Virus genome (UHGV): UHGV-0320443
Length of the DNA: 55,576 nt
Direction: 5' to 3' (one strand)
DNA from: a virus
Under the pieces are notes generated by a model. It saw nothing but the letters and a program-made list of their open reading frames with translations, made no database searches and had not been told where the DNA came from. This document shows positions 7,028 to 48,132 of the stretch, in pieces (the stretch's first letter is position 1; every line of letters starts with the position of its first letter). The position numbers were made by a program, and so were the translations under genes.

Positions 7028-7362
7028 TATTGAACGCTCCCTTCTTTTAAGGCGTTAATTTCAGCTTGTTGCTTCATATCATTCAAGGCTAATTGAATAG
7101 AAGTTTTACCTACTTTTTCGCTCTCTGTAATTGTCTTAGTCACATCTGCTTGTAACTTGTCTAACACTTCAGTTACTTCTTTAGGCACAGCATCAACCCA
7201 TTGATTAGAATTCCAATCGAATTTAGGCGCATACAGTCCTTCCGGTAAAGGAACTTCTGTAAAAGGTAACATTGTTGGATAGTCTGCAGGTACTTCCCAA
7301 GGACCTTCAAAGCCTGAAACTTCTCCTGGTTTGAAAATAAGTTTTGTTGTTGTCTCTTCCAT
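7027..7362 (-). CDS. XkdW-like protein (position-based call)
   Basis: A 111-aa ORF between the fibre and XkdX, as in PBSX-like tail ends. Confidence 0.35.
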   Translation of the reverse strand: MEETTTKLIFKPGEVSGFEGPWEVPADYPTMLPFTEVPLPEGLYAPKFDWNSNQWVDAVPKEVTEVLDKLQADVTKTITESEKVGKTSIQLALNDMKQQAEINALKEGSVQ

Positions 7363-13651: not shown

Positions 13652-13681
13652 GGTCCCTACCTTTAATTAGGTAGGAACCAC
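13652..13681 (-). terminator. hairpin with T-run just after the TMP stop (attenuator or terminator)
   Basis: GGTTCCTACC-taattaaa-GGTAGGGACC has one mismatch. On the minus strand it is followed by GTTTCTTTGTT. Confidence 0.3.
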
Positions 13682-16600: not shown

Positions 16601-17767
16601 ACGAAGCAAGGTATCCCGCAGACGAATTTCTTTGATTCCCATGTCATCAAGTAAGTTGATTGCAGTTGTACCTTTCTCTTCGGCGTGACCTAATCCTTCA
16701 ACGAAGGCTGCGATAGCACCTGTAGCATCTTCTTCAAATGCTTTCTTAAATTGTTCTGCTGACATGCCGGCAATATTAGCAAAGTCTTCTAAGTTCTTAG
16801 AGTTCTTAATTACGTTGTTCAACTCATCAGAAGTCATACCAATACTTTGAGCTAAGCCGTTAAAGTCAGATGAAGCATTCGCAGACATTAATTCTAAGTC
16901 ACGAATACTCATTCCTGTTTTTTCTACAACTTCTCTAGCAGGTTCTAAACCAGTAGAGGTAGCTACTTGCATGTTGATCATTGCTTTAGAGAAAGCAGAT
17001 CCACCCATTTCAGCTTTGATACCTAATGAAGTTAATGCCGTAGAGATACCCAATACATCAGCTTCCGAAAGACCTATTTGATCTCCGGCCGCTGCCAGAC
17101 GTAATCCCATGTTAACGATTTCAGTTTCTGTTGCAGCAAAGTTGTTACCTAATGCTACGATGGATGAACCTAATCGTCCTACATCATTACTACTAGTACC
17201 CATAATGTTTGAGAATCTAGCTAAGGCCGTTGCAGCCTCTTCAGCACTCATATTAGTAGATACACCAAGCTTGATCATTGTCTCTGTAAAGCTGGACACG
17301 TCTTCTGTTTTGATACCTAACTGACCAGCAGCCTCAGCTACTCCTGCAATTTCAGAAGCTGTAGCTGGAGTTACTTTAGCTAAGTTACGTAAACTTTGTT
17401 CTAAATCATCATAAGATAGAACGACATTTCCGTTTGAGTCCTCTACTTCATCTACTGTTTTCTTGACACCAGCAAAAGCCGTTTCCCAATCAGCAGCAGC
17501 AGTAACAAGTCCTTTAATACCTAAAGAAGCCGTAGCACCGACCGCAGTCATTACTGTACCAATCTGAACCATTGCTTGGCCGACCTTTTCAGTAGTTTTC
17601 TGGGCCGCTTTTACGGCTTTATCGTATTCTTCTCTTTGTTTTTGAGCTGACTCTTGAACTTTCTGATCAGCTTGATTGAACATTGCATTAGCACTATTCA
17701 AATCGCTTTGCAGAGTATCAAGTTTTAACCTCATTTCAGCATAAATGGAACCTAAGTTAGTAGCCAT
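13667..17767 (-). CDS. tail tape measure protein
   Basis: 1366 aa, coiled-coil-rich with central hydrophobic segments, and downstream of the chaperone pair. Confidence 0.85.
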   Translation of the reverse strand: MATNLGSIYAEMRLKLDTLQSDLNSANAMFNQADQKVQESAQKQREEYDKAVKAAQKTTEKVGQAMVQIGTVMTAVGATASLGIKGLVTAAADWETAFAGVKKTVDEVEDSNGNVVLSYDDLEQSLRNLAKVTPATASEIAGVAEAAGQLGIKTEDVSSFTETMIKLGVSTNMSAEEAATALARFSNIMGTSSNDVGRLGSSIVALGNNFAATETEIVNMGLRLAAAGDQIGLSEADVLGISTALTSLGIKAEMGGSAFSKAMINMQVATSTGLEPAREVVEKTGMSIRDLELMSANASSDFNGLAQSIGMTSDELNNVIKNSKNLEDFANIAGMSAEQFKKAFEEDATGAIAAFVEGLGHAEEKGTTAINLLDDMGIKEIRLRDTLLRVGGAQQLFNDAVEMSNKAWRENAALTAEADKRYETFDSKVQMLKNRFYDMAITVGDVFKQALSEIIDSAEPFIQALEKMANGFANLDEETQMFIAKSAMVAAALATIGGPMLIIGGKTLPTFSKALRFSVTNGLSPFATKMGALMTGGSGLPFFGKALGSAGSGMTALGGATGGAVVGLGTIAAVVAVVIAALGAMALAFYENTYQVRELLSSFWNAIKDTFSQIGNTVESNTNAWKPLVDILKGVVEIIGAAVWYTFISSLAATADIIRITINLAMALLNAFMAVSNAVEIIGFAMVGNFDAVKERSAALVDNVKGVGKNIASAFDPANSALINTYKNMGKTAEATEKVTKTFKVSNNEFENMLTNINTASEATASSLEKASTAVTENLMNTVDATGEALSDQTKKFLQNVADLYATYQEQSAAASQKATEAIAAAEQLSGEERLQALQQANEEYVKAIQGNNELLLATYSDYNSILKSNQWADGTELTEQQRELLQQQTEAIRQELATQNELYVQAQLLRIQSGEELAAQEQQTAIEVLKSAYAERATALEEGENALEELRKAKREASNETEKANYQIQIDEQINQNNIMKENLAAWGSQMIELMANNGTLTAESWGQGISAMGELSDVQLAALYTAFVSKTGLIEDAMGGFAQVMAIKGGDAAQNFVTAIQNGDYEGAAAMVNDEIIGIIQKLPPDMFKNGDKGQKDFITALKSGDFDEAGKYLSGTVIDGIDSKSKYFPDTGKRQAKDYSNEIKNGKSGARSAGEEITASAASGVSSGDSDMRSAGSGNASAAKSGYSSVGGWYDVGYNTSSGIASGIRGGAGAITGAAMAVAQEALAAAKSKLQVKSPSRRARKEIGIMFSRGLALGITDGEQEAISAADKLAENLMDTFYINPDVSTLYDNLKTAITGINSDIDFESRIQQGASNYMYYNFYGPLVGQANMTTTESVSTLARQLQQNLTNRNKARGIVVPT

Positions 17768-17791
17768 GGATTTACCTCCTTTCTAAGTTAA

Positions 17792-17998
17792 TTAGAGGAA
17801 ATCAGGCACATTACCCTTTTGTGGTGCGTCAGGTAAGTCAAGTTTTTCCCCATCAGATAATCGCTGTACTATAATAGTACAAGCTGAGTCAAGATCATAA
17901 GCAGTTGTTTGACTCAGCCCTGGGAAAAAGTCGCTAGGACGACAACTCCATGTTCTAGCATTAGCTATTAGCATCGTCATCTGGGCTGGATCCTTCAC
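17792..17998 (-). CDS. gpT-like C-terminal extension, probably read as a G-T fusion by +1 frameshift
   Basis: Its frame is open through the end of the G ORF. The CCC_UUU_C heptamer on the minus strand (plus 17999-18005) allows +1 re-pairing to CCU_UUC. There is no convincing independent RBS or start. Confidence 0.4.
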   Translation of the reverse strand: MKDPAQMTMLIANARTWSCRPSDFFPGLSQTTAYDLDSACTIIVQRLSDGEKLDLPDAPQKGNVPDFL

Positions 17999-18467
17999 GA
18001 AAGGGTAACATCGATAATGTATCCCCCATAGCCCATTGGAAAATAGCCATTTTTTGACTCTGCAAAAGATCGATGCCTTTTTCTTTAAATTCAGCAGCAG
18101 AAGGTCTAACTAAAGCTTTGTAAGCAACTTTGTCAACCATTTCCAGCATACGATCAGCAGTTTCTTGGTCGTTATTAATTTGATCTTCAAGTTCTTTAGC
18201 AACTTCGTCAAATTTTTCTTTGTCTTCGAATAATTCGTTAGCTGCCCCTTGAAGAGATGTGTTAGCTTGGAACATACCTTCTCTAGCTAATTCAACCATG
18301 TCCACCTGCCGGACCATAACTGTCATTGTTTGACCTTTACGAAATGATGGAATGTCTAAAGGTTCACCTTCGTTTACCATTTCAAAAATTTCGTCAATAC
18401 TTACAATATGCTTACCTTCTTTGCGCATATTTTTGATTTCATTAATTACCGTCTTGTTGTCGCTCAT
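17961..18467 (-). CDS. tail assembly chaperone (gpG-like)
   Basis: A 168-aa acidic protein directly upstream of the TMP. It overlaps the next ORF in a different frame. Confidence 0.6.
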   Translation of the reverse strand: MSDNKTVINEIKNMRKEGKHIVSIDEIFEMVNEGEPLDIPSFRKGQTMTVMVRQVDMVELAREGMFQANTSLQGAANELFEDKEKFDEVAKELEDQINNDQETADRMLEMVDKVAYKALVRPSAAEFKEKGIDLLQSQKMAIFQWAMGDTLSMLPFREGSSPDDDANS

Positions 18468-18481
18468 TATACTAATCCTCC

Positions 18482-19114
18482 TTAAGAAATTTCTGCTGGT
18501 GTAACTGCCTCTGTTGGAAGAGCATCCACGAGTTTTTTACGAACAGCAGGGATATTTGTTTTGGTGTTTTCTGAACCAGTGATAGTAAAGGCTTCAGCAG
18601 CCCATGTTTGATCTGCAAAGGACATGTTAGGAACAGTACCTGTACAGTTAGGACTTGTTACACATAAGTAACCATCCTTACGTCCACCACTTGTGTAGTT
18701 AGAAACGAAAATGTCGATTTGGAATGGAACCCGATCATCGGATTCAGCCATCATAGGCGCATCCCAACCAACAGCTTTTGTAACTGCATCAGGTTCTACA
18801 CCAGTAGTTTCGGTGATTAATTTACCACCAGCAATGATTGTTGACAACTGAGCATCGAAACGCGCATCAGTGAAACCAATCGAAACACCCGTAATTTTAG
18901 AATCTTCTTGCAACGTTACCAAAATACGATCTCCGCCACGTAAGTTATCAGATTCAGCATCTGACATTGTAGCTTCAACAGTAGCTTCCTGAGATGTATC
19001 CACCCAGTATTTTTCTGGAGTAGATGGAAGAGAACCATCAGCGTTTAAAACTGTGATAAGAGCTCCCCGGACACCTCGTAGGTAACCAGTTTTAACTTGT
19101 TCTTGACGAGCCAT
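18482..19114 (-). CDS. major tail protein
   Basis: 210 aa, immediately upstream of the chaperone pair. Confidence 0.6.
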   Translation of the reverse strand: MARQEQVKTGYLRGVRGALITVLNADGSLPSTPEKYWVDTSQEATVEATMSDAESDNLRGGDRILVTLQEDSKITGVSIGFTDARFDAQLSTIIAGGKLITETTGVEPDAVTKAVGWDAPMMAESDDRVPFQIDIFVSNYTSGGRKDGYLCVTSPNCTGTVPNMSFADQTWAAEAFTITGSENTKTNIPAVRKKLVDALPTEAVTPAEIS

Positions 19115-19115
19115 G

Positions 19116-19508
19116 TTAGTTCCTCCTTGTTCTAGCCTCGAATCTAATCGGGCCGTTAGTTATTTTGTTTAACGTTTGATCTAAATAAAAATCACTAATC
19201 ATAGTGACTTTGTAATCAACAAAGCCTTGTTCAAAAGTGTCATTATAAGGAACATCTAATGCTAAGGCTTTGATCAATTGATCCGTAGCTTCTTCTATGC
19301 GACTGAAATCTCCTGGTTCGTCATAGATGTAACAGTTCAATCTATTAATGTAAGCACCAGGCGTAATGTCTTCACCTTGGTTAGGAGATATAACCATGTA
19401 AAAATCCTCTTGCTCATCTGGATTGACTGTGTATGGTTGATAAATCTTATTCTCTAAAATAGGAATGTTTGCTCTACAATGTCGAATCAGTTCCTGGATC
19501 AAAGTCAA
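19116..19508 (-). CDS. tail terminator / neck protein (start uncertain, possibly TTG)
   Basis: The track ORF begins with TTG right after an in-frame TAG. There is no good RBS and it overlaps the upstream ORF by 35 nt. Confidence 0.4.
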   Translation of the reverse strand: MTLIQELIRHCRANIPILENKIYQPYTVNPDEQEDFYMVISPNQGEDITPGAYINRLNCYIYDEPGDFSRIEEATDQLIKALALDVPYNDTFEQGFVDYKVTMISDFYLDQTLNKITNGPIRFEARTRRN

Positions 19509-19701
19509 CCACCTCTACTGCCATTCCAGAACGCACTAACGAATTCACAAGTGACTCCGGCAGATGATCAAGGGACTGACCACGTTTAACCTGAAACTCG
19601 ACTTGTGGATCAGAGTCAGTTGCACGATAGTAATGTACTGAAGTTACTAACGCTTTAATCTGAGGCTTTTTAGTTTTTGTAGTGTCTTTAGGTTTTACCA
19701 T
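19474..19701 (-). CDS. hypothetical neck-region protein (75 aa)
   Basis: Strong RBS AAAGGAGG 9 nt before the ATG. Confidence 0.45.
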   Translation of the reverse strand: MVKPKDTTKTKKPQIKALVTSVHYYRATDSDPQVEFQVKRGQSLDHLPESLVNSLVRSGMAVEVVDFDPGTDSTL

Positions 19702-19716
19702 TTTTGCTTACCTCCT

Positions 19717-20055
19717 TTAATTGCTATTCCAAATTCTTTGATACTCTTGAAACATGCCTGGCGTTAAAGCATTCATGGTAGGATCGAGAATGGCGAACCG
19801 CCCTCCATGATCTCTTTCCAAGTATACTCCGTAGTAAGGCATTTGTGCTAATACAACAACAATCTCTTTTGAATTTACTTCAGAGGAACCAGTCAATTGA
19901 TTTCTGGCGTCACCTGTTCTGTCTGTCCAAGGAGCATTTGCTTTTGCATAAGTTTCTAATGCTTGTGCATGTTGTGCTGCTTTACTTGCAAGCTGATCAA
20001 TTTTACTATTGATATGCTTGTTAAGATTTTGATTTACTTCGACCGATCCAGGCAT
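19717..20055 (-). CDS. head-tail joining / tail completion protein
   Basis: Size and position in the neck cluster. Confidence 0.4.
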   Translation of the reverse strand: MPGSVEVNQNLNKHINSKIDQLASKAAQHAQALETYAKANAPWTDRTGDARNQLTGSSEVNSKEIVVVLAQMPYYGVYLERDHGGRFAILDPTMNALTPGMFQEYQRIWNSN

Positions 20056-20430
20056 TTATTCCACCTTCTTCAAATAACATTGGTAAGAAGCAATTTGGCC
20101 TTCAGCAAAAGTAGGAATGATCCCTTCGATTGAAAAGTTACCAACTGAGCATTTAAAGGAATCACTTATGTTTGAAGTAGCTTTGACGTCCGCATCCCAC
20201 GGAGCTAGCATAATATAGTCCGCTTCAATGGCTTTACCACCAATAACAACAGTTTTTTGAGGTGTTCCTAATAGATAAATACGTACGGTTTGAGCTGGGA
20301 GCGTAGTAGATACAGTACTAAGACCTCCACCATCATTCCGCTTCTTCTCCGAACGTACAATCTCAATTTGAATAGGATCCATATTAATGTGAGTTGAAGC
20401 ATCGGCACGTCTTTGTTCTAAGCTAATCAC
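20056..20430 (-). CDS. head closure protein
   Basis: Size and position in the neck cluster. Confidence 0.4.
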   Translation of the reverse strand: MISLEQRRADASTHINMDPIQIEIVRSEKKRNDGGGLSTVSTTLPAQTVRIYLLGTPQKTVVIGGKAIEADYIMLAPWDADVKATSNISDSFKCSVGNFSIEGIIPTFAEGQIASYQCYLKKVE

Positions 20431-20828
20431 CAGTCCATACCCATATGATCTTGAGTCAACCTTGAAATGTCTACCGATCTAGGACCGCATTTGCGACCTT
20501 TTTCACCTGCGGGTGTAGCTCTCACCATTCGTGCAGGACTTGCTTTGTCAGAATAGAATTGGTACATCTTCATAAAGTAAGCGTAGGCATCTTCGGGACT
20601 TGAGTAGTTGTAAGATTCGGCTCCAACTGAATAAGAAGTTGTAGCACTGGGATTCACACTAGCCGCCTTTTGTAACCAGAAATCGGCGGCTGTGCGATAC
20701 ATATTCCCATGAAATTCTTTTAACCTTGACTCAATTTCTTCGTCAGTAAATACAAATGGCGTAGAAGTATCCCCAATCATACGACGTAGTCTAGCGATTT
20801 CTGTAGGGTTAGTTTCTTGTGTAGCCAT
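20427..20828 (-). CDS. head-tail connector / adaptor protein
   Basis: Directly after the MCP, 133 aa, Tyr/Phe-rich. Confidence 0.45.
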   Translation of the reverse strand: MATQETNPTEIARLRRMIGDTSTPFVFTDEEIESRLKEFHGNMYRTAADFWLQKAASVNPSATTSYSVGAESYNYSSPEDAYAYFMKMYQFYSDKASPARMVRATPAGEKGRKCGPRSVDISRLTQDHMGMDW

Positions 20829-20841
20829 TTATATAACCTCC

Positions 20842-21882
20842 TTAGGCTGTTGGCAAAGTAATTTTTTGAACGTTGTCATCGATCGCGATATAAGCACCAC
20901 GACGAGTACGAGCAACTACTTGAGCTTCGATCAAACGAGACAAGTCAGCTAATGCAGAATCAATTCGCAAGCCGTGTTTAACAAATTCAATCAAACCACG
21001 TTTTGGACGAATTAAGAATGCAGTACCTTTTGGCACACCTTCGTAAGTGTATTGTTTTTTACCAACAGTTGTTTCCCAACCATCGTAGAAAATAACTTCG
21101 TTGATACCAGTTACACCAGGGAAAGGAGTAGCTCCTACAGTGTAGTTAGCAAAAGCAGCTTCGATTTGAACTTGGTCTTCTGAGCTAGCTAATAGCACAG
21201 TACCGGCACGATGATCTTTACGAGATGCAGTTAAAGCCGCATTCAATGTAGCGATCGTATTACGTTCTAAAGCAAAGTCACCAGTAAAAGTAGTAACCGC
21301 AGATGTTTGGTTAGCTGCTGGGTATTCATTGTATTTAATGATTGGGCCTAAGTGTAAGTCATTCAACAAAGCGTTGTAAGCTTCACCAAAAGCTTCATTC
21401 AATACTTGCATACCAAATTGTTCGTTGTAAAGAACCATATCTTCAGTGTATTCAAAACCTGCCGCGAATGCAGTCAAGCGAGTTGCAGGACCTTTTTCAG
21501 CAGATAATGCACCGAATTTGATTTCTTCACCTTCTTGCCATTCAGTAAAGATAACGTTACCGCGTTGAGCGAATGTAGCGTCAATCAATTTTGGCAATGT
21601 AGAATCTTCGATTGTACGGTAGATAGATTTGTAAAGCAATGGAACTTGCTCACGACCTAAATCTACATCCAATACGACTTTACGTAAAAGATCTTCAGCT
21701 CCTTGAGGAGATGTTAACATTTCACCTAAAGGTTTTGTGAATTCAATTGTTTCCATTTCCCCATTTACTACTTCAGATTCGGCAACGAATTCTTTACCAG
21801 CAATTGAGAAAGGTAATTCTTTTTTATAACTTTGTCCAGCCTTTGCAGCTAACAAAGTATCATGACTTGTAATTTTAACCAT
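20842..21882 (-). CDS. major capsid protein (HK97 fold)
   Basis: 346 aa, following the scaffold and a small head protein. Composition is typical of an MCP. Confidence 0.7.
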   Translation of the reverse strand: MVKITSHDTLLAAKAGQSYKKELPFSIAGKEFVAESEVVNGEMETIEFTKPLGEMLTSPQGAEDLLRKVVLDVDLGREQVPLLYKSIYRTIEDSTLPKLIDATFAQRGNVIFTEWQEGEEIKFGALSAEKGPATRLTAFAAGFEYTEDMVLYNEQFGMQVLNEAFGEAYNALLNDLHLGPIIKYNEYPAANQTSAVTTFTGDFALERNTIATLNAALTASRKDHRAGTVLLASSEDQVQIEAAFANYTVGATPFPGVTGINEVIFYDGWETTVGKKQYTYEGVPKGTAFLIRPKRGLIEFVKHGLRIDSALADLSRLIEAQVVARTRRGAYIAIDDNVQKITLPTA

Positions 21883-21906: not shown

Positions 21907-22254
21907 TTAACCCTGAGGTAAAAGAATTCCCCAAGTTACACCATTTGCATCACTTTTTTCAGTTACTCGCAAGTAAGCTGGATCAGCCGGAACTTCTTCT
22001 GCTGCAGCCGCAGCTACTTGGAATTTACCTGCTGAAGTGTAAGTAATTAAATCTCCTACTTGTGCTGTTAAGCCTTCTTCAGAAAATTCATATTCAGCTT
22101 GCTCAATGTTGATAACCATGTTATCCCCATTCAAAGCGTTACCAATTACGAATCCGTGGAAGCCATTAACAACTGCGAAATCACCATCGTTATAATCTTT
22201 GTCGGCTACAACTTTGACGGATTTACCATCAGACACCTTTGTACGAATTGCCAT
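21907..22254 (-). CDS. small head protein (decoration-like)
   Basis: Start re-set to MAIRTKV, preceded by AAGGAGG. Lies between scaffold and MCP. Confidence 0.4.
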   Translation of the reverse strand: MAIRTKVSDGKSVKVVADKDYNDGDFAVVNGFHGFVIGNALNGDNMVINIEQAEYEFSEEGLTAQVGDLITYTSAGKFQVAAAAAEEVPADPAYLRVTEKSDANGVTWGILLPQG

Positions 22255-22267
22255 GTTTGTTTCCTCC

Positions 22268-23401
22268 TTAATATCCAATCGAACGTTTTACTTTACGTAC
22301 GTTGGTTGATTTTTTGCTATTGCGGTTGTCTTTTCCACCACCAAAGCTTTGATCAGTCATCAAAGTATCGAAGACATTTTTGATTGATTCTTTGCCTAAG
22401 TAAGTATCCATTTCACCTACAATAGCTTCTTTGTCAGTTCCTTCAAAGTGGAACATTTCTGCAGCTAATTTTTGTGCTGCTTCGTTGTTAGGAATTTTTT
22501 CTTTGATGACCTCATCGATCAATTCCTCTTGTGTTTTATCTTCTCCGCCTTCTGGATCAGCTTTAAGCTTTTCTAGGGCGGCATCGATTTCTTCTTGTGA
22601 ACTTTCTGCTGTGACTCCCAATTGAGATAAGAGGTGCTCAAGATTTTCAGGAATTCGGTTAGTGTTATCTTCTTTTCCTTTGTCATCGTCCTCACCCTTC
22701 TTGTCTTCTGGGATTAGCGCAGCAAATTCTTCAGGAGTAATTTCTCCTGCATCTAACTTAGCTTTTAATTCTGCTAACAATTGCTCTTTGTCCATAGGTT
22801 CTTCATCCTCCTTCATTTCGCCTTTGATCTGTACATCAATTAATTGTGTAGGCATTCCTGGTCTACCAAGTGGCGTCCAGTCAATACTTAATAAGTCACA
22901 ATCAACTACCTGTGTTTCTCCGGCTACTTTTTTAAGTTGCATTTTTCCAAAGATCGAAACTTCCTTAATTCGTTTAGATTTAATCCAACGACGTAAGTCC
23001 TTTTCTTTCGGATCCACGTAACCTCTGAAGAAGCCTGCTTGTTTTGATTCGTCATAGATAGCTCCGATCCAGTGAGTAGCAGGATCTAAGAATTCGGTTG
23101 AAACATTCTCGGCTTTCTGATGACCTTTAAATCCCGCAGCCGTTCTATCAGCTACTTGATTTACAATCGACTTAATTGCCTCCACTGTGTAATTCCATCC
23201 GCGTTTTGATTTAGACGCAGGAATCTCAACCACTACTTCCATAGGATGTTCATCTCCAGCAGTCAATGCTTCATAATCTACTGCTTGAGACACTGGAATA
23301 GAATTGACATCTACTTGTGATATCGTAACAGGGTCACTTTGGATTTCTCCAGCGATCGTTGCGCCATCACGGTACTTTTCTAGAAATTCTTTTAAATCCA
23401 T
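22268..23401 (-). CDS. scaffolding protein (possible N-terminal protease-like domain)
   Basis: C-terminal half is K/E/D-rich helical (ELKAKLDAGEITPEEF...). It sits upstream of the MCP. Confidence 0.55.
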   Translation of the reverse strand: MDLKEFLEKYRDGATIAGEIQSDPVTISQVDVNSIPVSQAVDYEALTAGDEHPMEVVVEIPASKSKRGWNYTVEAIKSIVNQVADRTAAGFKGHQKAENVSTEFLDPATHWIGAIYDESKQAGFFRGYVDPKEKDLRRWIKSKRIKEVSIFGKMQLKKVAGETQVVDCDLLSIDWTPLGRPGMPTQLIDVQIKGEMKEDEEPMDKEQLLAELKAKLDAGEITPEEFAALIPEDKKGEDDDKGKEDNTNRIPENLEHLLSQLGVTAESSQEEIDAALEKLKADPEGGEDKTQEELIDEVIKEKIPNNEAAQKLAAEMFHFEGTDKEAIVGEMDTYLGKESIKNVFDTLMTDQSFGGGKDNRNSKKSTNVRKVKRSIGY

Positions 23402-23432
23402 TTTCTCACCTCCCTCGAATAATCTATCCTAA

Positions 23433-23452
23433 GATAATTATACTATAATTGC
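23433..23452 (-). promoter_or_regulatory. TATAGTATAAT promoter element ahead of the scaffold gene
   Basis: The plus-strand ATTATACTATA at 23437-23447 is the reverse complement. Downstream on the minus strand are the RBS GGAGGTGAG and the ATG at 23401. Confidence 0.4.
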
Positions 23453-23472
23453 TAGGTACCGTCACTAAATAA

Positions 23473-23501
23473 ATAATAAAAAAGAAGACCCGAAGGTCTT
23501 C
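23473..23501 (-). terminator. rho-independent terminator
   Basis: GAAGACC-cgaa-GGTCTTC stem (23484-23501) followed on the minus strand by a U-run (plus-strand A-run 23474-23482). Confidence 0.55.
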
Positions 23502-23503
23502 AA

Positions 23504-23632
23504 TTATTTTTTCACAGGAGCATATGGTTTACCATAGCTAGGCGTATCAGTTCCGCGTTTACCTGCTTGAACAATTCCTTTTACATCTGTTTTCTTTTTG
23601 CTCTCATTTGGCTTGTTAGTGTACTTAGGCAT
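23504..23632 (-). CDS. small basic protein (about 42 aa)
   Basis: Manual read: GGAGGTGAACACTC then ATG, giving MPKYTNKPNESKKKTDVKG...PVKK, and ending at the terminator. Below the track's size cutoff. Confidence 0.4.
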   Translation of the reverse strand: MPKYTNKPNESKKKTDVKGIVQAGKRGTDTPSYGKPYAPVKK

Positions 23633-23652: not shown

Positions 23653-25149
23653 TTATGGTGTAAAGGTTTTAGAACCTGTGAAGTATTGTCCACCAGTGTA
23701 TCCAGTTATAGATCCAATAGTTGTCATATCTCCATAGGCTGTAACATAAGATGAGGTGATATTAATACCATTAGTGTTATTAGCACCCCACAAATTACCG
23801 ATACGAAATGTTGTTGAGAATCCACATAGTACAGCTGTCTTAGCATTAGCTACATAGTTGTTATACATAGCTCCAATAGAACTGTGGATAACAATATTAG
23901 CATTCCAATCAGCAATGTTTTTTGTATTAGTTGCAAATCGGCATCTATCGATAGCAATATATCCTGAACGGTCAGCATATAAGGAAGCTCTTGAATAACT
24001 TGTCTGATCTACTCCACCAGTATTAACAATGTTAGCTGAGTTAGCAGGATCAACAAAAGTAATACAACGTAATCCAATATAACCACGAAAATCTCGAAAG
24101 GCTATCTGTCTAATTTTAACAGGTGAGTCAGTAGTTTGTACATTGTAATCAGCAGGAACACCTAAAGAATTAAATTCTACTGAACGCCAGAAGCGACCAA
24201 ATAATCTAATGTCTTCCATATAAGTACCAGCTTTAATATTAAAGATAACATTCCATGGAAGAAAATAAGGTAGATAATCAACAGCTCTTTGAATAGTTCT
24301 AAAAGGCTTCGCCTCAGTTCCATCCGCAGTCGAATCATTGCCTTCTGTACTACTAATATAAATAGTAATAACATTATCAGCCTCAGATAACCTACGATAG
24401 ATATCATGCAACTCGCTAGCTAAACTATCTATGTTACCTTGTATAGTACCCATCTGAGCTACTAATGCATTATAGTCTGCATCGATACGAGCTTTCAGAT
24501 TTGCTTTAGCTAGTCCATCACTAGTAGCAGTTCTAGCATTGGTAACTTCAGTAGTTAAAGTAGCTAGATTATTTTGTAATAAAGCTACAGCACTAGATAA
24601 TTGCGCGGCAGTATCTCCATCTAAGTAAGTTTGTACGTTATTCCACCAAGCCATAAAATCATTAAACAATTGATCTTTACGAAGCTCAGCATCAGCATAA
24701 AGGTCTACAAACTTGGCACGCAGTGTTTCAAAGTCATGAATATAAAATTCTTGTTCAGCAACAGTCACACGATCGATTAATGATTGCTCAATTTGGAATG
24801 AGAATATAATAGAACCGATTCGTCCTTGAGTATCAGCTACAGTCAGTTGCCCTAATGCTTTACCTGGATGTCGTAAGACTGCTTTAGGTAATGAATAAGT
24901 AATCTTACCAGTTTGAAGATTTATGGCAGCTGGATCAGACATTTGGAATTTAGATTCGTCTTCAGTAGTAACAACAAAGAAATGATCTAATCCTTCTACG
25001 GCAATTCTTTTCTTAGTAGAAGCATCAATTAAAGTAAAGGCAAAATCAACAGCATTCCAGTCACCTGAAAAGACTTTAATGTTTGTTGGTCCTACTTTGT
25101 TAATGACATTATCGATTTCCAAAGTCATGTCAATACGCTTAGTTACCAT
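23653..25149 (-). CDS. beta-helix (pectate-lyase fold) virion protein with an N-terminal domain and a coiled coil
   Basis: GNDSTADGTEAKPFRTIQRAVDYLP is the classic N-cap motif of right-handed beta-helix proteins. The C-terminus is N/G/T-rich and repetitive. A coiled coil spans about aa 170-250. Confidence 0.5.
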   Translation of the reverse strand: MVTKRIDMTLEIDNVINKVGPTNIKVFSGDWNAVDFAFTLIDASTKKRIAVEGLDHFFVVTTEDESKFQMSDPAAINLQTGKITYSLPKAVLRHPGKALGQLTVADTQGRIGSIIFSFQIEQSLIDRVTVAEQEFYIHDFETLRAKFVDLYADAELRKDQLFNDFMAWWNNVQTYLDGDTAAQLSSAVALLQNNLATLTTEVTNARTATSDGLAKANLKARIDADYNALVAQMGTIQGNIDSLASELHDIYRRLSEADNVITIYISSTEGNDSTADGTEAKPFRTIQRAVDYLPYFLPWNVIFNIKAGTYMEDIRLFGRFWRSVEFNSLGVPADYNVQTTDSPVKIRQIAFRDFRGYIGLRCITFVDPANSANIVNTGGVDQTSYSRASLYADRSGYIAIDRCRFATNTKNIADWNANIVIHSSIGAMYNNYVANAKTAVLCGFSTTFRIGNLWGANNTNGINITSSYVTAYGDMTTIGSITGYTGGQYFTGSKTFTP

Positions 25150-25202
25150 TCCTCAGGCCTCCTTTTAGTTTTCTTACTTATATTATATAGGAAGTAGCCC
25201 AT

Positions 25203-25502
25203 TTAATCACTTTCTTTTAGCCCAATAACTGCAGCTTTTAAAGTAAGAATACCTGGCTCTCCTACTCGTCCTTCAATGTAGCCTAATTCTAAAATTTCTA
25301 AGTCTAAGAGAGACCCAAGTAAATGGTCTCTCATATGTTGACTTACATTGATCTTATCTGAAGGTAATTCCGTGATTCTTTTAGGAGCATTCGCGGGAGT
25401 TTGCGATGGATCTACATCCCAGAATTCTTCTGGAACTGCCATCATTCCTCGCGGTAGACGCTCTTTTTCATCGTCTAATAAACCTCTATCAGTCCTTGGC
25501 AT
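25203..25502 (-). CDS. hypothetical protein (99 aa)
   Basis: ORF overlapping the portal start by 14 nt. Confidence 0.4.
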   Translation of the reverse strand: MPRTDRGLLDDEKERLPRGMMAVPEEFWDVDPSQTPANAPKRITELPSDKINVSQHMRDHLLGSLLDLEILELGYIEGRVGEPGILTLKAAVIGLKESD

Positions 25503-27147
25503 TACGTTTCGCGTCCCTTCTTTGCTGTCTTGCTTGACTAACTGTCAAACCTGCGGTATCTTCATCTGCGGGATCTGTGTTGTCTTCGCTGTTAGCGTCC
25601 GTATTATCCTTCTCAACGTAAGGATCTGCTACACTGTTCAGGAATTCAATACCTTTCTTAATACGGCTTAACTCACTTTGACCGTCTTCACCCGTGTATT
25701 TACCCATGTAAGTAGGCATTACACTGTACAAGTAGTTGATTGCTGTCTCAACAGATACGAATTTCTTCTCAATACCCATTGCAAAAGCGTTAACCAACTG
25801 TGTTACAGCAGTACTTTCAGTCATAACATCGCGTTCTACTATAGCAGGCCACGTAATGTCTGTGTCATAATCTTCGATGACCGTACCTTCAATGAAGCTA
25901 CTTGCGTTGTACATATACAAATACATGCGCGCTAGCAGGATAAAGTCCGGCTCAAACATGTCTCGCTTCTTAGCTACTTTCTTAATCATAGGGGTCATCT
26001 GTTCTTTTACACTAGCTTTAGCACTATTGACTGCGTTACCGAAGACAAATTCAGGTGTTTGAGTCACATCTACTAAGCTCATGAACAAATAATCCAATAA
26101 TTTTGAACTATCTGTCATTGTACTGGTTGCTTGGCTCAATTCAATAGTATCATCGGCGTTCCCCGTGATCAAAATCTCCGTGCCTTGCAAATTAATGTTA
26201 GCACTTTCGCCTTCAGCTAAGCTTTCCACGTCAATACCAAAGTTAATATTCAAGAATTCAGTCACATCGGCTACGTTCATGATCATTTTAGGAGCGGAAT
26301 GGAGTTTATTATTGATCATTGAGTTAGACATTACATCATGGTATGCTTTAATGTAAGGTAATGCTGCTTCAATCTCTGAGTGTCCATATAATTCAGCTGG
26401 CTCTGCGTCATTTCTAAAGTGAATAATGTTAACAAAGCCCCATTTATTACGTTCTTGTCTAGGGTGCTGTTCATCGAACTCTTTATATTGTAGTGGCACG
26501 TCATTGCCATCGAAGTAAGTCTCAATCTTATCTGGCAAAATGGTCTCTACTATAATATATTCCCGGTCATCGCCATTCTTATCTGTGTACTCAACACTTG
26601 TTGTTACACGAAAGCCAATAGGGTTTCCCGTATCTGTGTCTAATACTCGGGTTACACTTTCTGGTGTTAGTACTTCAATAATAATATCTTTTCCACCGTT
26701 AGTATACAATTGGGCGTATGGGTGCTCTTTACGACTCAAACGTACATAACAATCAGCGTCCCGTAAACAATGACTGACAATCTTTTGGATCTCATCTTTG
26801 TTTCGTCTACGGAAGTCATCCAATAAAGACTGAGCACTTTCATCGTTGCTCTTCCAACTCGGAATGCCAATAAATCCTACTGTTGTATCAATAATAGGTT
26901 TTAATAATCCGGCACCTAAGTAATAATCCTCATTGGTATTATAATACAATTCTTTTGTCAGTTGGTAATTGGTTTTGCTTACATTCAACTTGTAGGTATC
27001 AATTCGTCCATGTAATCCTTTCCAAGGCCATCTTGTTTCTCTTAGGCCGCCAGAAAACATTTCTCCAACTACTTGTGTCCAACTTCTCTTTTTCTTTTGT
27101 GGTGTAGTTTCTTTTCTTAACCCACCAACGTAAATCGGCTCTGTCAT
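25489..27147 (-). CDS. portal protein
   Basis: 552 aa, directly downstream of TerL, with an acidic C-terminal tail. Confidence 0.8.
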   Translation of the reverse strand: MTEPIYVGGLRKETTPQKKKRSWTQVVGEMFSGGLRETRWPWKGLHGRIDTYKLNVSKTNYQLTKELYYNTNEDYYLGAGLLKPIIDTTVGFIGIPSWKSNDESAQSLLDDFRRRNKDEIQKIVSHCLRDADCYVRLSRKEHPYAQLYTNGGKDIIIEVLTPESVTRVLDTDTGNPIGFRVTTSVEYTDKNGDDREYIIVETILPDKIETYFDGNDVPLQYKEFDEQHPRQERNKWGFVNIIHFRNDAEPAELYGHSEIEAALPYIKAYHDVMSNSMINNKLHSAPKMIMNVADVTEFLNINFGIDVESLAEGESANINLQGTEILITGNADDTIELSQATSTMTDSSKLLDYLFMSLVDVTQTPEFVFGNAVNSAKASVKEQMTPMIKKVAKKRDMFEPDFILLARMYLYMYNASSFIEGTVIEDYDTDITWPAIVERDVMTESTAVTQLVNAFAMGIEKKFVSVETAINYLYSVMPTYMGKYTGEDGQSELSRIKKGIEFLNSVADPYVEKDNTDANSEDNTDPADEDTAGLTVSQARQQRRDAKRNAKD

Positions 27148-27158
27148 ATTAGTCCTCC

Positions 27159-28847
27159 TTAATGTAGCCTAATGCTTCGTAAAGCGGCTCCCTCTTTTGC
27201 TGTCATTCTCCGTGCAGGTCTATTACCAATAGTTCTTAACAAAATTTCACAAGCATCCAATACGTCATCGTGGTCTACATCTGGGTAACTAATAAATTCA
27301 CTAATGAAGTCTTGGTTATCTGGGTGTACCCAAATTCTACGTGTTTCAAAATGGACTCCTAGAGCCTCAATACGAGCGATCTTCGCCCCATCCCCCATAG
27401 TAGTAGGGATCTGCTTAATCGGCAGCTGAGCACTAATGGCTGTAGCAGCTTGCGCTAAAGCTTTTTGGTATTGAACTGCTTCTATCCCAATCAAGATTGG
27501 TTTGTAGCGTTCATTGTACTCTTGAATCAATCGCAATTGTTCCGTCAATGTAACTCTGGCTTTAAATGTTTCTATAATAAACAAGCGCTGGCTCTTATGG
27601 TGCCAACCACCTACTTGAATACAGAAGAAGTCACTATCACCACTTTCCAATCGTCCGATATAATCCTTATCAGCGATCGCCGGGTCAATCCCTATATAAA
27701 AACTAAGCTGTTCAAATGGTGGGAGTGTTACCTCGTAACCACTTTGAGCAGTTCTACCATAGTAATTCAACCAAGCTGGATTTAACAATCTACCGGTTTG
27801 TGCATTCCGATTGTTCTGGAATAGCTTTTCAAATTTAACTGCTCCAACTGTTCGTTTCTTAGCCATCAACCGTTCGTAAGGCCAGCGTTGGCTTAGTGTG
27901 GTGTGAGTGCTTTCATCTAATGCTTTAATGTGTACATAAGTAAACTCTTCACTCTCGGATAAGACACAATACAAATCTAAGCGACTTTGTAAGGTACCAA
28001 CCATAGCACATTTTCCGCCTTCAACCAAACGGCTAATTACCATTTCTGTAAACCAGTTGTAAATGCTTTCCCTAGTATTGACTGTTTGGCTATTAGTTAA
28101 GTCCAAAATATCATCACATATAATAATATCTAAACGTGCTCCGTTAATAGCGCCCCCGGCTCCTAAGAATTGAAAGGTTGGGTCTTTCGTTTGTCTATCT
28201 TTATCCCGCACTACATATCCTTCAGCCTGTGTCCACTTCTCATTAAAATCAGGCATCAAATATTCACCAAAATCTTCGTGCAGGCGATCATTGTGCTCAA
28301 TGTGCCACATCAAGCGTCGACCAAATCGTTCTGCTTGTCGAGCAGTTCGTGAAAAAATACCCATCCGAATATTTCTATCATTAATTAAATTCCACAAAGG
28401 AAACACTTCACTAATCCAAGTACTCTTCCCATGCTCAATCGGAATGTGTACAATGGTCTGAGCACTTTCCATAACTGCTTGCATCAGTAGGTATTGATAA
28501 TCCTCAGCATCCGTGTTCCATTGTTTATTATAAGGTCTCAGATAATACTCAGCAAATATAACTGGGTTAGCTCTAGCTAACTTGACCCTAGTCTCCTTAG
28601 GCAATTGTTCCATCTTATCCCGGAACTCAACTGCGGATGGTTTTAGTAATAACCGCGGAACGCGTAAATACTTTGCCATTACCTGCTGTACTAAGAAATT
28701 GTCACTTTCAGCCCTAATCTCATCTGTAATCTCATAATCGAAATCGACGGAGTCGACCTCCTCAAGGTTACCTTCGATCAACTGTAACTTGGGCTTATTA
28801 GAATCGCGGACCTTCTCACCATAATATTTATGTACCACGTCTCTCAC
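27159..28847 (-). CDS. terminase large subunit
   Basis: ATPase motifs HIPIEHGKST and DIIICDD, plus a C-terminal RNaseH-like nuclease region (GIDPAIADKD). GTG start. Confidence 0.85.
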   Translation of the reverse strand: MRDVVHKYYGEKVRDSNKPKLQLIEGNLEEVDSVDFDYEITDEIRAESDNFLVQQVMAKYLRVPRLLLKPSAVEFRDKMEQLPKETRVKLARANPVIFAEYYLRPYNKQWNTDAEDYQYLLMQAVMESAQTIVHIPIEHGKSTWISEVFPLWNLINDRNIRMGIFSRTARQAERFGRRLMWHIEHNDRLHEDFGEYLMPDFNEKWTQAEGYVVRDKDRQTKDPTFQFLGAGGAINGARLDIIICDDILDLTNSQTVNTRESIYNWFTEMVISRLVEGGKCAMVGTLQSRLDLYCVLSESEEFTYVHIKALDESTHTTLSQRWPYERLMAKKRTVGAVKFEKLFQNNRNAQTGRLLNPAWLNYYGRTAQSGYEVTLPPFEQLSFYIGIDPAIADKDYIGRLESGDSDFFCIQVGGWHHKSQRLFIIETFKARVTLTEQLRLIQEYNERYKPILIGIEAVQYQKALAQAATAISAQLPIKQIPTTMGDGAKIARIEALGVHFETRRIWVHPDNQDFISEFISYPDVDHDDVLDACEILLRTIGNRPARRMTAKEGAALRSIRLH

Positions 28848-29691: not shown

Positions 29692-29898
29692 ATGACAAGA
29701 TCAAGCAAGCAAAAATATTTATTCGTAAGTTTAACAATCAAAAGCTTGTCGGAGGAAATTGACAATTTATATGAAGCTTACTATAACTGGGACATTGATT
29801 ACGATCGTGATCAAATTGCAAAAGTTGTTGAGGAAAAAGAGTTGAAGTTGGAAGAATTAATTGCAGAGCGCAAAGCAATCTTGAGAGGAGAATTATAA
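29692..29898 (+). CDS. hypothetical protein (68 aa)
   Basis: Good RBS. First gene after P1/P2. Confidence 0.5.
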   Translation: MTRSSKQKYLFVSLTIKSLSEEIDNLYEAYYNWDIDYDRDQIAKVVEEKELKLEELIAERKAILRGEL

Positions 29899-30344
29899 TG
29901 AAAACAACATTAAACAATGGCTTGGTCGTAGAGGTTCCTAACACTCGTACAAAGGTTAAAGAGATCGAAATGGTAGCAAAAGTAATTAATGTGGACGTTG
30001 ACAATTTAAATCGTAAGGAAGCTTTGGAAGTAGTTAAGAGCGAATTAGATAAACACCAACGAGTGCTTCTTCTAAATGCTCCAGCTAAGAAGGAAGTTAA
30101 ATTAAGCCCAGCGCAATATAAAAAGCAATTGTCATTAGCGAAATGGGCTAATCAAGATTATGTCGCAGAAGCAGTTGAAGCTTATAACAATGGAGAAATT
30201 TCAAAGTCAGAAGCAATTCGACAATTACATTTCTTGAACGTACCAAATAACTTCATTGCAAAATTAGTCGGAGCTCGTTACCAAATGGTCTTCAACGTAT
30301 TGGATCGCATGGAAGATGCAATGTCAGAAATGCAAGAATTTTAA
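29898..30344 (+). CDS. putative DNA-binding protein (N-terminal HeH/SAP-like motif, C-terminal HTH)
   Basis: PNTRTKVKEIEMVAKV (Rho_N/SAP-like) and ...NFIAKLVGARYQMVFNVL (HTH). It is a paralogue of the minus-strand ORF 35343-35873. Confidence 0.5.
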   Translation: MKTTLNNGLVVEVPNTRTKVKEIEMVAKVINVDVDNLNRKEALEVVKSELDKHQRVLLLNAPAKKEVKLSPAQYKKQLSLAKWANQDYVAEAVEAYNNGEISKSEAIRQLHFLNVPNNFIAKLVGARYQMVFNVLDRMEDAMSEMQEF

Positions 30345-30411
30345 TTGATAGAGAGGCTCAACAGAGCTTGAGCTTCTCCAATGAATTAAAATTTAAATAA
30401 AGAAAGAAGAG

Positions 30412-30843
30412 ATGAAAATGAAAAAATTAATCTTGCCAGCGAGCATCTTGCTCAACATAATGTTACTAGCGAGCGTCAACAGCTTGAGAAATTCAGCTGC
30501 GGAAGCTCAACAGGAACCGAAGGTCGTCACTAAAACTGAGTACGTGACCAAGGAAGTGGAAGTGCCAGTTTATTACGAAAAGGAAGTTGACTCGGGCGAG
30601 CACATTATTGAAAACGACAAAGTGAAAATTGAATACTTCGATCTAGATGATGGAGGCTTTGACATTCTATTCACAGCAAAAGAAGATTACAACGTGCTTC
30701 CAGTATTCACTCGCACAGATGACAAATTTTATCGCGACGCATATTTCACAGGAATGCAAAAGAACTTAGCAGAGATTCACGTAGACAACATGAACGAATT
30801 AAGTCCAGAGTTGAATTGGGACTTTAGCTGGGACAACGAATAA
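30412..30843 (+). CDS. secreted or membrane-anchored protein
   Basis: N-terminal signal/anchor MKMKKLILPASILLNIMLLASVNS with no lipobox Cys. RBS GAAAGAAGAGATG precedes it. Confidence 0.55.
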   Translation: MKMKKLILPASILLNIMLLASVNSLRNSAAEAQQEPKVVTKTEYVTKEVEVPVYYEKEVDSGEHIIENDKVKIEYFDLDDGGFDILFTAKEDYNVLPVFTRTDDKFYRDAYFTGMQKNLAEIHVDNMNELSPELNWDFSWDNE

Positions 30844-30900
30844 TAAAAAGAGAGGCCTGGGTCGGAGTTAATCCGGCTCAGAGCTAAGGAGGAAATTAAA

Positions 30901-31104
30901 ATGTTAACACACACTGAAAAGAAAAATATGACGATCGTAAGATCGATTGGGCAATATATTGTAGAGCATACTAAGGATCAACAAGGCTTCGAAGATTATC
31001 TAGAAGATGAAATGTTCCTTCGCGATTGCCGAGAGCTATTGCAAATGGCAGAAGAAATGCAAGCAGAGCGTGAATCGAAATTGGAGGAGAGCGAATATGA
31101 ATAA
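30901..31104 (+). CDS. hypothetical protein (67 aa)
   Basis: RBS AAGGAGG before the ATG. Confidence 0.5.
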   Translation: MLTHTEKKNMTIVRSIGQYIVEHTKDQQGFEDYLEDEMFLRDCRELLQMAEEMQAERESKLEESEYE

Positions 31105-31405
31105 GCGGGAGATTTACTTTAAAGCGCTCGAGGCAATTAAACCGGAAGAGCTGGTTTGGAAGAGCTACGAAGAAAATGAAATCTTGAAATGGGAATGGGC
31201 AGGTGCAAGAGGAGATTCGATCGGAGGGAAATTATTCTTCCGAATCGATCCTGTGACCAATGTCTTCGCCATGATGGGAATGGAAATTATAAATGGGTCG
31301 AACATTGATCGAGAGCCGATCTATATGACCATGATCGAAATTGAAGAACGGTCCCGAAATATGGACACGATCATAAAGTACCTGCTAGAATATATGGGGG
31401 CCTAG
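31097..31405 (+). CDS. hypothetical protein (102 aa)
   Basis: Start re-set to MNKREIYF (GGAGGAGAG RBS, ATGA overlap with the upstream stop). The track ORF starts at 31007. Confidence 0.5.
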   Translation: MNKREIYFKALEAIKPEELVWKSYEENEILKWEWAGARGDSIGGKLFFRIDPVTNVFAMMGMEIINGSNIDREPIYMTMIEIEERSRNMDTIIKYLLEYMGA

Positions 31406-31808: not shown

Positions 31809-32528
31809 TTATTCTTCAATTGGTTCTGCGGGTTTCGGGGTTAGGATATTATTGATCTCATCCAGCATGTTCAAACTTGAAGAGGAAATCTCAGAAGTGT
31901 TTTGAGTTGAATCTGCTGTTTGATTCACTTGAACTGCTCCATTGCCATTAATGCTTATTCCTACGCCTGGATTTGTTTTAGCTGGCTCGTCCATTTTCAT
32001 CGCAGTACTAACTAAACTTGACAATGCATCGATAGCTTCAGTGAACGTAACCAAGTCGACATTATTGACATCGATCTTAGTTAAAATGACTTCTTGCATT
32101 TTTGGAATTAAATCTGACCAAATCGAATTCATTACCATCGTCTTATTTGCTGCGATCGTTTGTTGCAATTGGGTCAAAGCTAACTCTGTTTGATTGACAT
32201 CAATTATCGCCTGCGGAATATCGTTGCCAACTCTTGTCTCGGCTTTTTGCAATGCATTTTGAACTTTGTTTTCCTCAGGCTCTTCGAAATATTCTAAGAT
32301 CCAAGGAAGCATTTCTTTATGCCTCGAAATTTGCTTTGGCGTAAGTTTTAAATTTTTCTTACCAGCGAACTCAATAATTTCTTTATAAGTTCTACCCGCT
32401 TGAATCATCCCATTAATATCTTTCATAAAGCCCGAATTGGCTATGCCAGAAGTGTTTAAGTAACGTGCGACTTTAAGCTTCTCTTTTTCAATATCTCGGA
32501 ATTGATTATCTAGGTCGTTTTGCTTCAC
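31809..32528 (-). CDS. hypothetical protein (239 aa)
   Basis: GTG start with AAGGAGG RBS, and its own promoter and operator-like repeats upstream. Confidence 0.5.
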   Translation of the reverse strand: MKQNDLDNQFRDIEKEKLKVARYLNTSGIANSGFMKDINGMIQAGRTYKEIIEFAGKKNLKLTPKQISRHKEMLPWILEYFEEPEENKVQNALQKAETRVGNDIPQAIIDVNQTELALTQLQQTIAANKTMVMNSIWSDLIPKMQEVILTKIDVNNVDLVTFTEAIDALSSLVSTAMKMDEPAKTNPGVGISINGNGAVQVNQTADSTQNTSEISSSSLNMLDEINNILTPKPAEPIEE

Positions 32529-47273: not shown

Positions 47274-47277
47274 GTAA

Positions 47278-48123: not shown

Positions 48124-48132
48124 AATGTCCTC

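Follow-up and report, generated by a model that had tools for sequence, protein, structure and literature searches.

We analysed a 55,576-nt stretch of viral DNA (UHGV virus genome UHGV-0320443; hereafter the window), a siphophage genome of ~55.5 kb with nearly all of its genes on the minus strand. Between the portal gene and a scaffold-like gene, an open reading frame (ORF) of 498 amino acids (aa) occupies positions 23653-25149 on that strand, exactly as described in an initial annotation made from the sequence alone. We find that this gene encodes a fibre in which a BppU_N domain is fused to a protein like gp19 of Listeria phage A118 (aa 150-498), and that it stands in the slot held in related phages by a gp7/MuF-like minor head protein gene. 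From upstream to downstream, the locus comprises the following features.

25489-27147, minus strand: portal gene, upstream neighbour of the fibre gene (phrog_104, E=4e-18)
25203-25502, minus strand: p99, an ORF of 99 aa (from the ORF list)
23653-25149, minus strand: fibre gene, 498 aa (ORF, Pfam and PHROG matches, conservation in sister genomes under purifying selection)
24700-25149, minus strand: aa 1-150 of the fibre, immunoglobulin (Ig)-like BppU_N anchor domain
24376-24699, minus strand: aa 151-258, alpha-helical coiled-coil stalk, where the gp19-like homology starts
23656-24375, minus strand: aa 259-498, right-handed beta-helix head with a DUF1565-type N-cap motif, the variable part
23504-23632, minus strand: p42, an ORF of 42 aa (read from the sequence)
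23478-23501, minus strand: intrinsic-terminator-like hairpin, GAAGACC-UUCG-GGUCUUC with a U tract (terminator scan)
23437-23465, minus strand: promoter-like site (GTGACG, 17 nt, TATAAT; scan match at 10/12 positions) ahead of the scaffold, decoration and major capsid protein (MCP) genes
22268-23401, minus strand: scaffold-like gene, downstream neighbour of the fibre gene (phrog_3219, E=4e-88)

The fibre gene has a strong ribosome-binding site (AAGGAGG, 25158-25164, minus strand) 8 nt before its ATG. At the protein level, aa 6-147 match Pfam BppU_N (PF10651) with E=3e-16 and 59.8 bits against a cut-off of 23.1, covering profile positions 3-140 of 142. The N-terminal domain had a predicted local confidence (pLDDT) below 50 in the full-length AlphaFold model, and aa 1-162 were re-modelled with a trimmed alignment. 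The resulting AlphaFold2 model (mean pLDDT 82) is an Ig-like sandwich followed by a helix. The initial annotation had described the N-terminal ~250 residues as containing a coiled coil; one is indeed present at ~aa 140-258, whereas aa 1-150 are not coiled coil but Ig-like BppU_N.

The closest solved structure to the anchor by TM-score is the upper baseplate fibre FibU (gp68) of phage 80alpha (PDB 6V8I; Foldseek, 27-28% identity, root-mean-square deviation 2.3 Å, TM 0.82-0.83), and the N-terminal domain of FibU was also the only clear PDB sequence match found by phmmer. Chain P of the baseplate of the Brochothrix phage NF5 matched the anchor model with E=5e-13 (TM 0.70/0.73), and the next Foldseek matches were 80alpha FibL and then TP901-1 BppU (E=2e-9). 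A distant match was 9mt4_G, a chain of the Bas63 connector structure (E=2e-6, TM 0.50, 13% identity). In hhalign, the anchor gave a probability of 82% with TP901-1 BppU and 44% with the neck passage structure (NPS) of the same phage, a slightly better fit to BppU that is not decisive. The closest relatives of the N-terminal domain are all encoded in tail modules (a Bacillus prophage protein, KLEB27-1 gp20, NF5 gp18 and phi105 gp20).

In the AlphaFold model, the stalk forms helices at aa 140-175, 179-205 and 218-256, with a heptad signal above the 95th percentile of shuffles at aa 221-260. Beyond it, aa 260-480 are rich in beta-strands and modelled by AlphaFold2 with pLDDT >90. Foldseek matches this domain to right-handed beta-helix proteins, including pectin methylesterases, GH136, DFA-IIIase, CBA120 TSP2 and tail fibres or tailspikes of Bacillus and Staphylococcus phages. 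Structure prediction and a Foldseek search, both proposed in the initial annotation, thus bear out the C-terminal beta-helix that it claimed, and the N-cap motif that it quoted, GNDSTADGTEAKPFRTIQRAVDYLP, is located at aa 269-293. None of the curated beta-helix families (Beta_helix, Pectate_lyase_3, DUF1565) matched the fibre above threshold; the start of DUF1565 was matched by the N-cap only, below threshold at 16.1 bits against a cut-off of 20.3. The head is 9-14% identical to the structurally matched enzymes, and the only nearly invariant columns in the family alignment are G277, Y310 and G487. No conserved acidic pair was seen in this alignment, and catalytic residues are not assignable. 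The head is the variable part of the protein and presumably ligand-binding or enzymatic, and the functional class suggested at the outset, a glycan-binding or depolymerase-type fibre, is a reasonable one.

The evidence for a fusion comes from the distribution of relatives. The distal part of the fibre matches phrog_4577 ('tail protein') with E=2.9e-40 over aa 158-471 (profile positions 15-318 of 340). Searched exhaustively with HMMER, 1.84 billion representatives yielded 417 relatives, among which only the protein's own cluster covers its full length. The best remote relatives are ~340-350 aa long, align to aa 150-493 at 28-34% identity and constitute the Listeria A118/A500 gp19 family; others align to aa 1-160 only. 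Both kinds of relative are visible only through the exhaustive representative search: a word-indexed search returned only four close homologues with the full protein, and only one with the N-terminal-domain profile.

The A118/A500 gp19 protein (a 'pectin lyase fold' baseplate protein, PHROG 4577) is homologous to aa 150-498 of the fibre, which is 27-35% identical to the family, and the two share the same layout of coiled coil, N-cap motif and beta-helix. They differ in that gp19 family members are ~340 aa long, lack BppU_N and have genes that follow Tal directly and precede one for a separate BppU_N protein, whereas the fibre has 498 aa, an added BppU_N domain and a gene in the head module. 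In canonical phages of this kind, the gp19-like beta-helix and BppU_N proteins are encoded by separate, adjacent baseplate genes. The best gp19-like remote relative (P0005) lies in the order tape measure protein (TMP), Dit, Tal, P0005, BppU_N protein. A metagenomic relative (P0055) has a layout similar to that of the fibre, with BppU_N-like and beta-helix parts, and is likewise encoded directly after Tal. All homologues of either half with visible context lie in tail modules. Both gp19 and gp20 of A118 bind Listeria cells (review, PMC9863714).

The remaining genes of the late region that bear on the placement of the fibre are listed below.

27159-28847, minus strand: TerL gene, upstream of the portal gene
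21907-22278, minus strand: head decoration protein gene (phrog_122)
20842-21882, minus strand: MCP gene
18482-19114, minus strand: tail tube gene, with the chaperone gene next in order
13667-17767, minus strand: TMP gene, 1366 aa
12776-13606, minus strand: gene for Dit (distal tail protein), a candidate docking platform (Pfam Sipho_tail and SPP1_Dit, phrog_33)
10728-12785, minus strand: Tal gene
7416-10715, minus strand: gene for a 1099-aa protein, the second BppU_N protein, in the canonical post-Tal position (Pfam BppU_N, phrog_257, phrog_3285)

Several small ORFs after the MCP gene presumably encode head-tail connector proteins. They include the ORFs at 20427-20828 and 20056-20430. The first of these two, of 133 aa and next to the MCP gene, probably encodes such a connector, going by its position alone. 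Holin and endolysin genes close the late-region order after the gene for the 1099-aa protein, whose BppU_N domain spans aa 10-156 (Pfam E=1e-8). We considered whether the fibre anchor could be a duplicate of this N-terminal domain and rejected the idea, as the two are 21% identical, against 33-40% identity of the anchor to foreign tail proteins.

The evolution of the fibre was followed in the window and four sister genomes (five genomes), all of which carry the gene at the same position. TerL, portal, scaffold and MCP are 97-99% identical at the protein level among the sisters, with a backbone synonymous divergence (dS) of 0.04-0.28. Within the fibre, the three parts behave as follows.

Anchor, aa 1-150: 99.3-100% protein identity, 30 synonymous changes and 1 non-synonymous change, dS 0.04-0.12
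Stalk, aa 151-258: 84-94% protein identity, dS 0.33-0.69
Beta-helix, aa 259-498: 65-92% protein identity, dS 0.46-1.25

The ratio of non-synonymous to synonymous divergence (dN/dS, omega) is ~0 in the anchor and 0.07-0.24 in the stalk and tip (0-0.24 over the whole gene). Because omega is this low even in the stalk and tip, we conclude that the fibre gene is real, expressed and constrained by purifying selection. Beyond ~aa 150 the fibre has a history of its own that reaches further back, and this points to exchange of alleles by recombination. Conservation of the anchor combined with exchange of the tip is classically the mark of a receptor-binding protein (RBP) with external exposure. The same pattern is found in the 1099-aa protein, with 94-98% identity over its first 200 aa and 23-68% beyond. 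Across the sister phages, no clear co-variation was seen between the divergence of the fibre tip and that of the 1099-aa RBP.

Further differences among the sisters concern other genes. The distal 900 aa of the 1099-aa protein are mosaic, and its length is 1022 or 1099 aa. The next ORF after its gene (111 aa, 7027-7362) gave a faint YomQ_N-like match. The decoration protein is 88-93% identical among the sisters, compared with 98.6-99.7% for the MCP, which fits surface exposure. A recombinant tail module is indicated in one sister (L015), in which the stretch 15997-21488 (corresponding to 13667-19114 of the window) encodes a tail tube, chaperone and TMP of 92%, 75% and 83% identity, far below its head genes, yet the fibre anchor of this genome is 100% identical.

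The window portal is 32-45% identical to the portals of phages BSP7, Youna2, phiCD27 and BalMu-1, and these relatives reveal what the fibre gene has replaced. In phiCD27 and BalMu-1 the order is portal, gp7/MuF-like 'head morphogenesis' gene, scaffold, decoration and MCP. BSP7 and Youna2 have kept the gp7-like gene and carry cargo in addition (ThyX, a Rho_N protein and small ORFs) between portal and scaffold. We also scanned 80 IMG/VR loci with related portals using purpose-built family hidden Markov models (HMMs), and a gp7-like gene follows the portal in every one of them that extends far enough. The scaffold-like gene of the window is syntenic with the gene between gp7-like and decoration genes in all relatives. 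The slot is therefore that of the SPP1 gp7/MuF-like minor head protein, as the initial annotation had recognised. Other cargo in the portal-to-scaffold interval of the relatives includes a ParB-Dam methyltransferase, an IS transposase and an ATLF-like protein. Since this interval is a cargo hotspot, the position of a gene within it says little about function.

Two observations on the relatives may be added. The gp7-like ORFs measure ~1.0 kb in phiCD27, BalMu-1, BSP7 and Youna2, and many related loci have gp7/MuF-like ORFs of 1.7-2.9 kb (e.g. L040 2817-5366, L061 4092-6920 and L101 5722-8616), which suggests that C-terminal cargo or toxin domains are fused to MuF. In BSP7, a 588-aa beta-helix 'tail spike' (BSP7_027; L008 13904-15670; phrog_2234, E=8e-78) is encoded between the tail tube and chaperone genes. 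This gives the lineage a further fibre gene away from its usual place, with no sequence relationship to the fibre of the window.

The gp7 gene itself has been lost. A tblastn search with four gp7-like proteins found no gp7/MuF-like gene anywhere in the window, and the gp7 family HMM, run against all six-frame ORFs of the window, had a best match of E=0.11 that was not at the fibre gene. The fibre gene occupies the same slot directly downstream of the portal as that of the SPP1 gp7/Mu F-like protein, but the two proteins have no sequence or profile similarity, and their domain content and evolutionary behaviour are entirely different.

Two small genes flank the fibre gene. The first, p99, shares 14 nt with the end of the portal gene and is 97-98% conserved in the sisters; it has no Pfam or PHROG match and is absent from all other loci and from IMG/VR. 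The second, p42, follows the fibre gene immediately with its own ribosome-binding site, is a called gene in all sister contigs (95-100% identity) and encodes a lysine-rich product (MPKYTNKPNESKKKTDVKGIVQAGKRGTDTPSYGKPYAPVKK) with no Pfam or PHROG family match. A role in fibre assembly is conceivable for p42, as is that of a small, basic component of the virion. Because the window is without a gp7-like gene, and p99 and p42 are without relatives outside the sisters, we conclude that a clade-specific cassette, with p99 as its first gene and p42 as its last, replaced gp7 in a known insertion hotspot.

The cassette ends at a conserved regulatory boundary. The intergenic stretch 23395-23520 (126 nt) is 99-100% conserved in the five genomes despite synonymous divergence around it, and the hairpin within it (minimum free energy -11.6 kcal/mol, z=-3.7) is invariant. 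Promoter- and terminator-like sites are no more numerous in the region than in shuffles, and only the conserved intergenic hairpin and promoter were retained. Their position after p42 puts the fibre gene in the terL-portal unit, insulated from the capsid genes.

The 12 kb around the fibre gene gave no megablast match to cultured phages, and the fibre was not found in 185,579 species genomes searched for possible prophages, and hence for a host. A cluster of GTP cyclohydrolase, QueE-like and QueC-like genes (46563-49969, minus strand) points to 7-deazaguanine DNA modification. Further genes encode a MazG-like pyrophosphatase (45648-46472), a family A DNA polymerase (41146-43713) and a primase-helicase (50626-53595). 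No integrase was seen among the ORFs scanned, which were only some of those in the window; this fits a virulent lifestyle. Between TerL and a 239-aa ORF at 31809-32528 the otherwise minus-strand genome has a short block of ORFs on the plus strand (29692-31405) with reversed GC skew, whose gene content differs between the sister genomes.

One rival reading is that the protein is not part of the virion but a depolymerase or cell-wall-binding factor set free in soluble form at lysis, or that it is an internal or ejected protein that functionally replaces gp7/MuF; an unusual injected protein was among the options named in the initial annotation. Some phage beta-helix enzymes act as free proteins, the gene occupies the gp7/MuF slot, and the gp7-like ORFs of related loci frequently reach 1.7-2.9 kb. 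However, the fibre has no homology to gp7/MuF by tblastn or family HMM, and Pfam and PHROG scans gave no signal peptide or toxin domain match. A strictly conserved oligomerising anchor (omega ~0) would be purposeless in a soluble enzyme. Exchange of the tip in the manner of a receptor-binding protein is not expected of an internal protein, and an injected protein conflicts with the conserved-anchor, exchanged-tip evolution typical of exposed receptor-binding proteins. We regard a function outside the virion, or inside the capsid, as improbable.

The anchor domain also bears on where in the virion the protein would be attached. In TP901-1 and 80alpha, BppU_N domains form dodecameric (plus six) rings around Dit or the tail tube (PMC7048315, PMC11830787), and in the solved cases among the Foldseek matches listed they form tail- or neck-axis rings with no capsid contacts. 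From the position of the gene, the initial annotation had favoured a capsid-displayed head fibre. Such a fibre would sit as trimers on hexamers, pentamers or quasi-threefold sites of the capsid shell, like phi29 gp8.5 or its P68 counterpart, and display a glycan-binding beta-helix. The gene does lie in the head module beside the portal, scaffold, decoration and MCP genes, and there is a weak match to the 'head protein' family phrog_1220 (E=0.002). This match is confined to the low-complexity coiled coil (aa 138-259), the head fibres of phi29 and P68 are absent among the Foldseek PDB matches listed, and the capsid already has a dedicated decoration protein (phrog_122). BppU_N is the ring domain of baseplate fibres and of the TP901-1 neck structure rather than a capsid-binding domain, the visible contexts of homologues of both halves are those of tail modules, and the portal-to-scaffold interval of the relatives is an insertion hotspot for cargo. 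The shell of the capsid is thus probably not the site, and a head fibre of this type seems to us highly improbable.

With the anchor, fold and evolutionary pattern taken together, the protein is probably a virion-anchored accessory adhesion fibre on a tail-axis ring. We envisage a trimeric secondary RBP, possibly a depolymerase, that is part of the virion. Its BppU_N domain (aa 1-150) would oligomerise into a ring around the tail axis, followed by the coiled-coil stalk (~110 residues) and by the A118 gp19-homologous beta-helix head, which would touch cell-wall glycopolymers. The primary RBP of the phage is the 1099-aa protein, also the likely partner or neighbour ring.

For the position of the ring along the tail axis, both a baseplate ring and a neck collar have precedent by analogy with known phages. 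We tentatively prefer the baseplate, with the fibre in an upper ring at the tail tip, and give this placement slightly less than an even chance. The fibre ring would then be upper and peripheral, on or beside the BppU_N ring that the 1099-aa protein is expected to form around Dit and the tail tube, and the two could be stacked as 80alpha FibU is on FibL. At this site the fibre would supplement the main RBP by binding a host surface polysaccharide or teichoic acid reversibly and with low affinity. The cassette would have been inserted into the portal-to-scaffold hotspot, displacing the gp7/MuF-like gene, and the position of the fibre gene would reflect where new DNA is tolerated rather than the place of the protein on the virion. 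We favour the baseplate for three reasons. For both halves, every sequence-level relative and the best structural matches are components of baseplates; the two BppU_N domains of the phage, at 21% identity, mirror the FibL/FibU pair; and gene position counts for little at a locus that is a cargo hotspot.

The comparison with 80alpha is instructive in this respect. FibU is non-essential and docks on the FibL ring, and the N-terminal domains of FibU and FibL are 21% identical (PMC7048315). Like the fibre of the window, FibU is a second, accessory BppU_N protein beside a primary one, with a fibrous stalk after its anchor. It differs in having a collagen-like stalk and a C-terminal knob of unknown fold, in contrast to the coiled coil and beta-helix of the fibre, and its gene lies in the tail module, unlike the fibre gene in the head module.

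Several observations weigh against a baseplate location. The BppU_N domain is not specific to baseplates, given that the TP901-1 NPS carries Pfam BppU_N over aa 7-141 (E=9e-29). The fibre gene is co-oriented with terL and portal, upstream of the terminator of their unit and far from the tail genes. No BppU_N or gp19-like match was found in the 80 related head-module loci, so that no other baseplate fibre is seen at this position. The anchor (99.3-100%) is more conserved than Dit (95-97.5%), the Tal N-terminus (92-93%) and the N-terminal domain of the 1099-aa protein (94-98%), and its conservation is similar to that of the 133-aa ORF after the MCP gene (99-100%).

The main rival is a collar fibre resembling the NPS, in which a BppU_N ring at the junction of portal and adaptor would carry beta-helix-tipped whiskers that aid initial reversible adsorption. 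The TP901-1 NPS (ORF51) was shown by experiment to be a neck structure. It is the second, non-essential BppU_N protein of its phage and forms an elongated trimeric fibre whose distal part binds carbohydrate; its N-terminal domains have been modelled as a FibU- or BppU-like ring on the adaptor (PMC10747895). TP901-1 thus likewise has two BppU_N proteins, one in the baseplate and one in the neck, and in the window the canonical baseplate slot is already taken by the 1099-aa protein. Membership of the fibre gene in the portal transcription unit, and an anchor as conserved as the presumed connector and more so than the baseplate domains, point in the same direction. In the myophage Sf14, which has two sets of neck whiskers, the portal gene gp29 is followed directly by the whisker genes gp30 and gp31, and the decoration and capsid genes come after these (PMC11821841); the fibre gene shares this position. 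Bas63, whose connector chain 9mt4_G was matched by the anchor, has Ig-like collar rings with whiskers.

The same systems also show where the resemblance ends. Sf14 and Bas63 are myophages of Gram-negative bacteria, and their whiskers are separate small dimeric proteins, not a fused trimer of coiled coil and beta-helix. The NPS is analogous to the fibre in its BppU_N N-terminal domain and elongated stalk architecture, but it has 667 aa and DUF7013 C-terminal modules, none of which occurs in the fibre. The NPS gene lies at the end of the tail module, so that gene position and virion position are uncoupled in TP901-1 itself. The anchor is far closer to baseplate ring proteins (FibU, TM 0.82; NF5, E=5e-13) than to the Bas63 chain (TM 0.50, 13% identity), and its profile is less similar to that of the NPS than to that of TP901-1 BppU (hhalign, 44% against 82%). 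The C-terminal half comes from a family encoded in baseplate modules, and the locus is a cargo hotspot. In addition, a fibre of ~20-25 nm at the neck would be ~200 nm from the tail tip (our own estimate, from the 1366-aa TMP at ~0.15 nm per residue).

On balance, a neck collar is possible, although we consider it rather doubtful, and in this form the head-proximal fibre of the initial annotation survives as a live rival to the baseplate ring. Carried further, it is conceivable, and in our view again doubtful, that p99, the fibre and p42 constitute a collar system encoded in the head module of a Bacillus-type siphophage. In such a system the BppU_N ring would sit at the portal/adaptor with beta-helix whiskers (possibly depolymerases), p99 or p42 would act as adaptor or chaperone, and the gp7/MuF slot, perhaps with a portal-proximal role, would have been taken over.

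Whether at the baseplate or at the neck, the fibre is of a familiar kind, and what is unusual about it is the fused architecture and the displacement of the head-module gp7/MuF gene. It shows that direct fusion of a BppU_N ring adaptor to an A118 gp19-type beta-helix is possible, and that the gene for such a fibre can be housed in the portal-to-scaffold hotspot instead of the tail module, in exchange for the otherwise universal gp7/MuF. Annotators are warned by this case that host-range determinants can hide in head modules and that gene position does not reveal where a BppU_N protein is placed in the virion. Those who engineer host range are offered a natural swap point by the sharp recombination boundary at ~aa 150, between an invariant anchor and a freely exchanged tip. 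Should the fibre turn out to sit at the neck as a collar, NPS-type structures would be known from a further phage lineage and with a new type of tip, an A118 gp19-type beta-helix, and a receptor-binding module would have been recruited to the head-tail joint.

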